The translations under genes were made by a program, and so were the position numbers. The notes beneath the pieces are model-generated. The model saw nothing but the letters and a program-made list of their open reading frames with translations, ran no database searches and was not told the DNA's origin. From Puniceicoccales bacterium (lineage in GTDB: Bacteria; Verrucomicrobiota; Verrucomicrobiia; Opitutales; JAIRKQ01), in assembly GCA_031268375.1 (NCBI GenBank), contig JAIRXJ010000017.1, positions 1-57,969 on the forward strand: DNA of 57,969 nucleotides, read 5' to 3'. Below are positions 42,409-43,674 of the stretch, one piece after another (position 1 is the stretch's first letter; each line of letters opens with the position of its first letter).

Positions 42409-43674
42409 CTATTGTCGTATAAGAGCTTCTATGTGCCGTCCTCCAGGTCCAGGGTCTAGACCTGGATTCAAAATAAAATATAGCACAATGTCATTTGGAT
42501 TGATTGGAGGGAATGGATGCGCCATGTCAATTCTGGTACCATCGGCATCATAGCCTTCGTAGGCAGGGATGTCTCCTCCATGAAAATGGTTAACAATAAA
42601 TACTCTTCTTTGAAAAACGATTGCCGCCATTCTTGCATCATTGTCGTTGCCAAATCGATTTTTGTCAAATCTGGCAGGTGTAGTTGTGTATATAATTGCA
42701 TCGAGGCGTCCTGGGGTAAGGAAGGCTTGGTTGGGGTTTGGTATTGTTCCGCCTAAAATACCTTGTACATAATTGTGAATTCGAAGGCGAACTTCTCTCT
42801 GATCCCCTATTCCAACAAAATACCCTATGGCTGCGAAAAGACAGTTGCCGTCATTTGGAACATGGTAAATCTGAAATTGGCCAAAATTTCTTATATTGAC
42901 ATCAAAACCAGTGGGGCCGATGTACCTACCCTCATCCAGCTCATATAGCAACCTCGGGAGCTCAGGGTCTCTATTTACAATCAAAGGTATAAGCGGAGGT
43001 GGAGGTGGAGTATCTGCTAATCTCGCTGGCGGTTTCCTTACGGCACTGCCTGATTTCCTCGCTGGTCTCGCTGATCTCGCTGGCGGCGGAGGCGGCTCAT
43101 CCGCTGGAGGTCTCTCCGCTGCTTCCGGAACAAAACACAATCGTTGTAGAGCCCTCAATGCGTCTCCTACACCTCCAGCACTTTGATGTATACTGTTCCC
43201 ATGGGTATGTGCAGCCCACATTCCGACAGTTGCGGTATGACCATTGCGGTCATTATAGTGCAAGACACGGTGTGATCCCTTATATGTTATCCTTACATTT
43301 GTAGCATGCCCGTATCTATGAACAAAGCTATTAACAAAGGTCTGCATATCGGTTGCTTTTATGGGATCTTGACCTAAAAGCACATCAATGGCATCCATAG
43401 TTTCTTGAGAGACTGGAATAACATCTGCTAGTTCGGGATTAACTTCGACAGTTAGATCGAGTTCTTCCACTGCTGGTGACGGTGCTTCTTCCTCAGATAC
43501 TACATCTATTTTACTAATTGTAACTTTCCCGCGTTGAGTTTCTGTTGCTGCTCCGTTTACCTGATATGTAACGCGTACCATACGCTCATAAAGATGAATA
43601 CTAGCCACACCATTCCCCGATACCGTGTTATGTGCGAAATGTCCTCTTATTGCGGTTTGCACATCACGGTCCAA
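42409..43674 (-). CDS. OTU-domain cysteine-protease-like protein (deubiquitinase-like effector candidate) with proline-rich linker
   Basis: C-terminal domain carries HVPNDGNCLFAAIGYF (OTU Cys motif D-G-N-C-L-F-x-A; Cys278 = 42841-42843) and late His candidates VNHFH / GGRHIEALI. Linker aa 186-228 is PPADEPPPPPARSARPARKSGSAVRKPPARLADTPPPPP. TTG start; there is no ATG between the upstream in-frame stop and the TTG. Confidence 0.7.
   Translation of the reverse strand: MDRDVQTAIRGHFAHNTVSGNGVASIHLYERMVRVTYQVNGAATETQRGKVTISKIDVVSEEEAPSPAVEELDLTVEVNPELADVIPVSQETMDAIDVLLGQDPIKATDMQTFVNSFVHRYGHATNVRITYKGSHRVLHYNDRNGHTATVGMWAAHTHGNSIHQSAGGVGDALRALQRLCFVPEAAERPPADEPPPPPARSARPARKSGSAVRKPPARLADTPPPPPLIPLIVNRDPELPRLLYELDEGRYIGPTGFDVNIRNFGQFQIYHVPNDGNCLFAAIGYFVGIGDQREVRLRIHNYVQGILGGTIPNPNQAFLTPGRLDAIIYTTTPARFDKNRFGNDNDARMAAIVFQRRVFIVNHFHGGDIPAYEGYDADGTRIDMAHPFPPINPNDIVLYFILNPGLDPGPGGRHIEALIRQ

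Follow-up and report, generated by a model that had tools for sequence, protein, structure and literature searches.

What does a protein with an almost canonical OTU catalytic-cysteine motif do in a member of the Verrucomicrobiota? The question is raised by a minus-strand gene at 42409..43674 of a 57,969-nt contig from a Puniceicoccales bacterium (JAIRXJ010000017.1; the whole stretch is referred to as the window). Its longest open reading frame (ORF) runs from TTG to TAA and encodes 421 amino acids (aa), comprising an N-terminal domain, a proline-rich linker and an OTU domain; the JGI call of the same gene starts at an ATG at 43581 (Met32) and gives a product of 390 aa (P0001). A preliminary description, made from the DNA letters, had proposed a deubiquitinase-like protein and a candidate effector aimed at eukaryotes. 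Judged by family profiles and a structure model, the C-terminal domain is a divergent, lineage-specific OTU-family papain-like cysteine protease (clan CA). On balance, we consider it probable that this protease, with Cys278, His414 and Glu416 as its candidate active residues, would cleave ubiquitin or a ubiquitin-like modifier (Ubl) on conjugates of a eukaryotic, protist host.

OTU identity and candidate catalytic residues of the C-terminal domain

On its own, the 421-aa protein gave no match at E ≤ 1 in Pfam (PF02338 included) or NCBIfam, and no OTU was found among its matches in a PDB sequence search. The preliminary description had named a PF02338 search as a check and its failure as grounds for refutation, so that, taken formally, the single sequence spoke against the domain. 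As searches with one sequence returned no OTU, family-level methods were needed. Apart from P0001, the product of the gene itself, a search of 5.8 billion proteins yielded five relatives, which share only the C-terminal ∼190 residues at 39–59% identity. An alignment of seven OTU domains (A1), with invariant positions including H-V-P-x-D-x-N-C-L-F-x-A-I-G, A-R-x-A-A, R-V-F-I, P-I-N-P and D-I-V-L-Y-F, then served as the family profile. Compared with the PDB, this profile placed OTUs at seven of the top 10 positions (OTUD3, Otu1, nairovirus vOTUs, OTUD5 and OTUD1; E 0.05–0.85). Pfam OTU was likewise the best match for five relatives, with scores of 13.3–21.1 bits that lie below the gathering threshold of 23.3 bits.

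The profile also led from the family to canonical OTUs. When 1.84 billion representative proteins were searched by HMMER, A1 matched only 31 of them at E ≤ 1e-3, and the distant matches P0023, P0026 and P0031 (E 8.7e-6, 2.4e-5 and 7.7e-4) were clear Pfam OTUs (E 1.8e-22, 3.8e-27 and 4.1e-14, respectively). Aligning A1 with an alignment of these canonical OTUs by hhalign gave a probability of 98.4% (E 7e-15) over 124 columns, in which the Cys loops coincided and R-H-I-E-A-L fell on D-H-Y-D-A; this comparison is partly circular, since the A1 profile itself had picked out the targets. A scan of metagenome contigs with the OTU alignment added no confirmed relative.

Structure prediction, another check that had been proposed, pointed in the same direction. 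The AlphaFold2 model of residues 228–421 (pLDDT 83.8, pTM 0.84) adopted an OTU fold, and all 50 of its 50 best Foldseek matches in the PDB were OTU domains, headed by the Wolbachia wMel OTU (6W9R; E 6.5e-4, TM-scores 0.49/0.56); TM-scores overall were only ∼0.45–0.58. Taken together, the family-level evidence from profiles and fold overrides the null result of the single sequence. We place the OTU-fold cysteine protease domain at residues 228–421 (42412..42993, minus strand), as supported by AlphaFold2, Foldseek and hhalign; the OTU call of the preliminary description thus stands, with a domain of ∼190 aa rather than the 150 aa first estimated.

The Cys loop HVPNDGNCLFAAIGYF (residues 271–286; 42817..42864, minus strand) contains N-D-G-N-C-L-F-A-A at residues 274–282, which fits the OTU Cys-loop motif D-G-N-C-L-F/Y-x-A. 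Its core positions were invariant in the seven domains, bearing out the catalytic-Cys signature recognized earlier. Cys278 (codon 42841–42843), with Asp275 at Cys−3, is residue 51 of the domain and the first residue of model helix 51–60, and it aligns with the OTU catalytic Cys. The His loop GGRHIEALI (residues 411–419; 42418..42444, minus strand) provides His414 (42433–42435), which lies in the last model strand (186–193), and Glu416 (42427–42429) at His+2, where OTUs as a rule have an acidic or polar residue (PMC7396840). H-[IVM]-E-A-L was kept in all complete relatives. A second stretch earlier offered as a source of the catalytic His, VNHFH (361–365), dropped out: relatives have IIHRDY, IIDRDY or VFYNTNY at this place, so that His363 and His365 are no catalytic candidates. 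Based on motif conservation and model secondary structure, Cys278, His414 (as general base) and Glu416 are the candidate catalytic residues.

Between the strands RRVFIVNHF and DIVLYF, the family carries an insertion of ∼40 residues (approximately 366–403; 42466..42579, minus strand) with the motifs EGYDA-G-IDM and PINP. It is conserved in A1 and gapped against canonical OTUs in the hhalign comparison. By analogy with the variable-region framework of PMC7396840, the insertion could represent a variable region of the S1 site, which binds ubiquitin, in enlarged form.

The closest structure, wMel OTU (WD_0443; PDB 6W9O/6W9R; Schubert et al. 2020, PMC7396840), is that of an OTU encoded by an intracellular bacterial symbiont. 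It shares with the window domain the Cys-then-His topology typical of OTUs and extra β-strands N-terminal to the Cys loop (model strands 26–34 and 38–44). In contrast, sequence identity is only 14–16%, and the window domain has its conserved insertion before the last two strands, comes from the Verrucomicrobiota with an inferred termite-gut protist host, is joined to other N-terminal partner domains and is known here by sequence and model. The top matches by profile and fold, the nairovirus vOTU (L protein of Crimean-Congo haemorrhagic fever virus, CCHFV; PDB entries include 3PHW and 3PHX), OTUD1/3/5 and yeast Otu1, resemble the window domain in the Cys loop (VP-x-DGNCLF-x-A) and in the helix that follows. 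Unlike the window protein, they pass PF02338, have HY/HF-D instead of H-I-E in the His loop and belong to a different biological context. The OTUs of intracellular bacteria that are secreted by type III/IV systems, namely ChlaOTU (Chlamydia pneumoniae CPn_0483) and Legionella LotA, Ceg7 and Ceg23 (PMC7396840), were all absent from the A1 profile matches among the 1.84 billion proteins. ChlaOTU also lacks a recognizable His motif, whereas the window family has a clear one. The family is a new branch of the bacterial OTU proteases of eukaryote-associated bacteria, restricted to one lineage and below the Pfam threshold. Being below it, the family is an example of what routine annotation misses, and it could help to improve OTU profiles.

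Linker, N-terminal domain and 5′ end of the gene

Ahead of the OTU domain lies a Pro/Ala/Arg-rich linker (residues 186–227; 42994..43119, minus strand), which, as had been described, contains PAR units and two PPPPP runs (residues 194–198 and 223–227). The CTCGCTGG micro-repeats noted there were also present, with three copies (43022, 43058 and 43076) out of 5 in the whole window; within the linker they encode PAR/ARS units. Pro-rich linkers likewise precede the OTU domain in the relatives P0003, P0004, P0005 and P0011 and in an ORF of the related contig L002. The high GC content of the linker (0.60–0.64, compared with 0.43 for the window) was apparent from the start; it results from Pro, Ala and Arg codons and is no foreign signature.

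Comparing the gene with the rest of the window, as the preliminary description had suggested, we found its composition to be atypical to a mild degree. GC content at third codon positions (GC3) was 0.329 against a mean of 0.423 for 40 ORFs (standard deviation (sd) 0.046), which is ∼2 sd low and the second lowest value, and at first positions (GC1) it was 0.60, the highest of the 40. This mildly atypical codon usage is consistent with low expression, relaxed selection or an older foreign origin. Strong compositional foreignness was rejected: overall GC is normal, the GC of the linker follows from its amino-acid content, and GC3 is low by the ∼2 sd just given.

The N-terminal domain (residues 1–185; 43120..43674, minus strand) is homologous to the N-termini of P0011, P0015, P0008 and the L002 ORF. 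Its AlphaFold2 model was weak (pLDDT 64) and consisted of two α-β-β-β(-α) units, with a conserved GSH motif in the second; its Foldseek matches are meaningless. Pfam, NCBIfam, profile, PDB and Foldseek searches gave no family assignment, in agreement with the earlier remark that the domain has no recognized homology, and a word-indexed search with the N-terminal alignment returned the query itself only. We considered HicA toxin (PF07927) for residues ∼105–185 and found it unsupported. The window segment had no Pfam match, that of P0015 reached E 0.029 and 14.9 bits against a threshold of 27, the hhalign probability was 1.7%, and neither a PDB profile search nor Foldseek yielded a HicA; the likeness is limited to the GSH motif and the predicted α-β-β-β-α order.

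The 5′ end of the gene told a different story from the 'unusual TTG start' of the preliminary description. After an in-frame stop, this TTG is simply the first codon that could serve as a start, and homology to the Gx481 orthologue continues upstream of it. At 43675..43761 (minus strand), we detected a decayed ancestral 5′ end in which KEKGTTYVGKSRALYKAFID survives as an in-frame remnant, homologous to GNVTYTGRSPGVCSRFLEF in the Gx481 orthologue (L002), whose N-terminus reads MADKVLFQVGNVTYTGRSPGVCSRFLEFQTVIQRHF. An in-frame TAA (43735–43737) and TGA (43759–43761) precede the remnant. A DNA alignment of this segment with L002 9131..9260 revealed two indels, a 4-nt deletion that takes out the ATG and, after it, an insertion of 14 nt. 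If these lesions are not artefacts of assembly, the window copy lost its ancestral ATG and ∼27 codons, and this decay left the TTG as the first available start. No convincing Shine–Dalgarno-like site was found before the TTG or before the Met32 ATG. An N-terminal secretion signal, if there was one, may be lost from the window copy, and export with it.

Variation of the locus among relatives from termite hindguts

On five related contigs, the OTU gene occupied the same place, after atpA-G-D-(C) and usually before a transketolase gene, with prfB called in four of the five. The genes of this locus have diverged to very different degrees. Compared with the syntenic loci, the window had 92–97% identity in prfB, atpA, atpG and atpD; the values for the OTU domain were 39–59%, for the N-terminal domain 30–33% and for the small gene directly upstream 40–63%. 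Since the OTU gene sits within conserved synteny, a recent insertion is unlikely. A mobile element or a tRNA-linked island was rejected as well, the window having no tRNA, tmRNA or Rfam match.

The architecture of the protein varied along with its sequence. In Gx481_bin23 (L002, 9131..11281), a 716-aa ORF combines the N-terminal domain of the window protein with a repeated linker of the PPAFPRSESA type and two tandem OTU domains; JGI called only a shortened version of this frame, P0002, with 426 aa and the two tandem OTU domains. A segment named RelE / Txe-YoeB by JGI replaces the second N-terminal subdomain in Cc175_bin120 (P0003) and in P0005, and Nc350_bin44 (P0004) and P0006 have a hydrophobic N-terminus, a linker and the OTU domain only. 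A true RelE/YoeB domain in P0003 and P0005 was not supported beyond the JGI names and a TIGR02116 match at E 0.038, and a PDB profile search gave nothing. Two orthologous loci were broken. At the first, in Ncb351_bin8 (L007, 731..2433), a frameshift lies within the OTU domain and the C-terminal part forms a separate 87-aa ORF; at the second, in Cc175_bin120 (L001, 9682..11428), the hydrophobic N-terminal segment is in a separate ORF of 111 aa. Either the locus has decayed repeatedly or these are assembly errors. More distant members contained repeats or up to three OTU-like stretches.

Several of these proteins had further features. The N-termini of P0004, P0006 and P0011 and L001 9682..10017 contain two Gly/Ala-rich hydrophobic segments with a short polar loop between them, a feature that is absent from the window copy and has weak DUF1269 / Gly-zipper matches. 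In this they resemble the bilobed hydrophobic domain of chlamydial inclusion-membrane proteins. P0022 (789 aa), from a Puniceicoccales metagenome-assembled genome (MAG), joins an OTU-like domain to C-terminal kinase-like motifs (GKGACSTVYK, DLNPTNVV and VIDYD), which were judged by eye and had no Pfam match. In P0017 (801 aa, also from a Puniceicoccales MAG), an OTU-like domain is accompanied by long cysteine-containing repeats with a weak CSLinker match. Elsewhere at these loci, unannotated ORFs of 288–326 aa stand between atpD and atpC, within the ATP synthase operon, in related MAGs (L001 6277..7257; L002 4361..5320 and 5441..6394; L009 39..905), with none in the window or L003.

The distribution of the family was narrow. 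Across 185,579 GTDB species genomes, it was found in only four MAGs, all named 'Puniceicoccales bacterium' (Cc175_bin120, Gx481_bin23, Nc350_bin44 and Ncb351_bin8), and two more distant members also bear Puniceicoccales MAG names. By their sample codes, the four MAGs were obtained from dry-wood termites (Kalotermitidae), namely from hindguts of Cryptotermes cavifrons, Glyptotermes sp., Neotermes castaneus and N. cubanus, and every relative that is traceable belongs to a Puniceicoccales MAG or to a hindgut metagenome from flagellate-bearing dry-wood termites. According to the paper that produced the MAGs (PMC11257099), the Opitutales of lower termites with reduced genomes are putative endosymbionts of gut flagellates and are related to the intranuclear Ca. 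Nucleococcus; genome reduction is reported for the lineage. The window bacterium is a Puniceicoccales/Opitutales symbiont of a lower-termite hindgut, with a gut flagellate as its probable host.

Proposed role, alternatives and genomic surroundings

How could such a domain serve this bacterium? By analogy with every characterized bacterial OTU, cleavage of ubiquitin or a Ubl would be its likeliest activity; the validated ones all come from host-associated bacteria (PMC7396840). We propose that the protein is delivered to, or exposed to, the protist host, where the C-terminal domain would remove ubiquitin or a Ubl from eukaryotic proteins. For a bacterium with a probable habitat in or on a gut flagellate, two roles are conceivable: the domain could act on conjugates of the host or protect its own protein. 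In the first case, host conjugates would be the substrate. In the second, the OTU domain would shield the module attached to it from degradation by the host ubiquitin–proteasome system, as with Spaid of Spiroplasma poulsonii, a male-killing toxin of ankyrin repeats and an OTU domain that deubiquitinates the toxin itself and so stabilizes it in the host. The likeness to Spaid is mechanistic, by way of an architecture that joins an OTU domain to another module, and on this analogy Spaid is the model that best fits a C-terminal OTU on interchangeable N-terminal modules. The proline-rich segment could then be a flexible tether, and the N-terminal domain a module for targeting or a second activity that orthologues have exchanged for others. 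The ubiquitin or Ubl substrate, the export to the host and the expression of the 5′-truncated copy are all points that we infer.

A possible pointer to delivery into a eukaryote is a CesT-family gene, of the type III chaperone type, on the plus strand at 51006..51566 (Pfam E 5e-16, above threshold). It lies 7 kb from the OTU gene, is 87–90% identical in related MAG contigs and suggests that this lineage of Puniceicoccales may have a type III secretion system. With this gene and the termite-gut origin of the lineage, the designation 'eukaryote-targeting effector' is plausible but unproven. No secretion apparatus genes were found, either within the 58 kb of the window or at the related loci.

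A number of observations weigh against the proposed ubiquitin or Ubl protease. The missing apparatus genes are one, and CesT by itself is no proof of a type III system. At the level of the domain, the single protein lacked any Pfam match, its relatives score below the Pfam OTU gathering threshold and the TM-scores stay around 0.5, while three of eight predicted bacterial OTUs (ChlaOTU, wPipOTU and BurkOTU) were inactive on the standard substrate in vitro (PMC7396840). The placement of these MAGs in the endosymbiotic families LL51/UBA9783 is unconfirmed. Finally, the loss of the ancestral start and the broken genes of L007 and L001 count here too, and the truncated window copy may be unexpressed or not exported.

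These last points lead to the alternative that survives best, which we regard as doubtful but to be taken seriously: that the OTU family is real and this particular copy is decaying, its start and N-terminus lost, leaving a pseudogene or a truncated product that is not exported. The in-frame TAA and TGA within sequence that is still homologous to the Gx481 N-terminus, the ATG lost through indels, the missing Shine–Dalgarno-like sequences, the frameshifted or split loci of Ncb351_bin8 and Cc175_bin120, the low GC3 and the genome reduction of the lineage would all agree with decay. Yet 421 codons have remained open with every catalytic motif intact, past the lesion the whole N-terminal domain keeps its colinearity with relatives, the indels could be errors of metagenome assembly, and an internal TTG or ATG could still initiate translation. 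Decay of this copy would in any case be compatible with the OTU reading of the family.

It is improbable that the domain is an OTU-fold protease unrelated to ubiquitin, acting either as the autoprocessing or release peptidase of an antibacterial modular toxin or on a bacterial substrate. Its C-terminal position behind many unrelated N-terminal modules recalls polymorphic toxins, and the segment named RelE / Txe-YoeB in two relatives (TIGR02116 E 0.038) and the hydrophobic N-terminal segments of others would suit a toxin. Some RNA-virus OTU-fold proteases also process polyproteins. The similarities to toxin domains are not significant, however, and we saw no immunity-gene pattern or secretion marker of polymorphic toxins. 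The family is, besides, confined to a putatively protist-associated lineage, and biochemically characterized bacterial OTUs all act on ubiquitin or Ubls (PMC7396840).

It is highly improbable that the protein serves as peptidase in an antiphage or ubiquitin-like conjugation system of bacteria, of the Bil, Bub or CBASS type. Ubiquitination-like operons with deconjugating peptidases do exist in bacteria, but they use JAB/JAMM or BubE serine peptidases and the fold here is that of an OTU; moreover, around the gene we see prfB, the genes of ATP synthase, a small orphan and a regulator of the NtrC type, with no E1, E2 or Ubl gene, and PADLOC gave no match. That the DGNCLF motif is a chance match in a domain that is no OTU might be argued from the Pfam-negative single sequence and PDB sequence E-values >0.05, but this view is effectively refuted already by the 98.4% hhalign match over 124 columns with both catalytic loops, by the top 50 structural matches, all OTUs, and by a profile that reaches Pfam-positive OTUs among 1.84e9 proteins.

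The proposed ubiquitin or Ubl protease also draws support from the evolution of the locus. Fast divergence, module swapping and decay together form a pattern that is typical of host-interaction genes in symbionts. An extended version of the proposal, which we offer as speculation and think rather unlikely, is that the prfB-adjacent locus forms a rapidly evolving cassette of effectors in Verrucomicrobia that live in protists, possibly within the nucleus, and that its private OTU shields swapped N-terminal modules from ubiquitination and degradation by the host. The modules in question would be the GSH-motif domain, the RelE/YoeB-like segment, the hydrophobic anchors, the repeats and the kinase-like region.

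Among bacteria, OTU deubiquitinases have been described in Chlamydiae, Legionella, Rickettsiales, Escherichia albertii, Burkholderia and Spiroplasma, where they mark bacteria that manipulate eukaryotic ubiquitin signalling. The phylum of ChlaOTU is a sister phylum within the Planctomycetes–Verrucomicrobia–Chlamydiae (PVC) group. A literature search found no earlier report of an OTU in Verrucomicrobiota or in a termite-gut flagellate symbiosis. If our proposal is right, the OTU strategy extends to both, and if the cassette exists as outlined, it would point for the first time to manipulation of the ubiquitin system in either. How flagellate symbionts deal with the protein-degradation machinery of their hosts is a field that is essentially unstudied. 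A bacterial OTU in a putative endosymbiont will be little surprise to the specialist; of more interest are the hypervariable syntenic cassette and its partner domains, as the variable architectures at one syntenic site amount to a natural experiment on the exchange of effector modules during genome reduction.

As to the immediate neighbours, the OTU gene is convergent with a σ54 (NtrC-type) response regulator (41113..42339) that stands after an OEP/HlyD/RND efflux operon; the convergent arrangement described earlier was thus borne out, with the regulator ending at 42339. Directly upstream, on the same (minus) strand, lies a small gene of at most 134 aa (43796..44200). It does adjoin the OTU gene as the preliminary description had it, but the label 'orphan' no longer holds, since it is conserved in three related MAGs: its counterparts are L002 8268..8639 (63% identity), L001 9140..9514 and L007 229..570 (both 40–46%). 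No counterpart was found at the syntenic loci L003 and L009, and the gene had no Pfam, NCBIfam or PADLOC match. Next to it on the plus strand (44447..45586), release factor 2 (with the SPF motif) is encoded by a single uninterrupted ORF of 379 aa. In many bacteria, the gene for this factor has a programmed +1 frameshift; the prfB ORF of the window has none.

The remainder of the window is ordinary chromosome, with genes for glycolysis, a tRNA synthetase, ATP synthase, ribonucleotide reductase, biotin synthesis and transporters, and several orphans. Eight of its ORFs, of 190–600 aa, had no Pfam domain above threshold (5..1240, 5805..6506, 6864..8669, 11328..12356, 12423..13004, 21081..22598, 23456..24250 and 30107..30769), a high lineage-specific share. 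The only weak match among the eight was an apolipoprotein-like one in 6864..8669, probably owing to a coiled coil, and 5..1240 showed an odd GC content by codon position and may be in the wrong frame. A DUF2608 gene was found at 4686..5543 and a bioW-bioF pair at 2166..4150.

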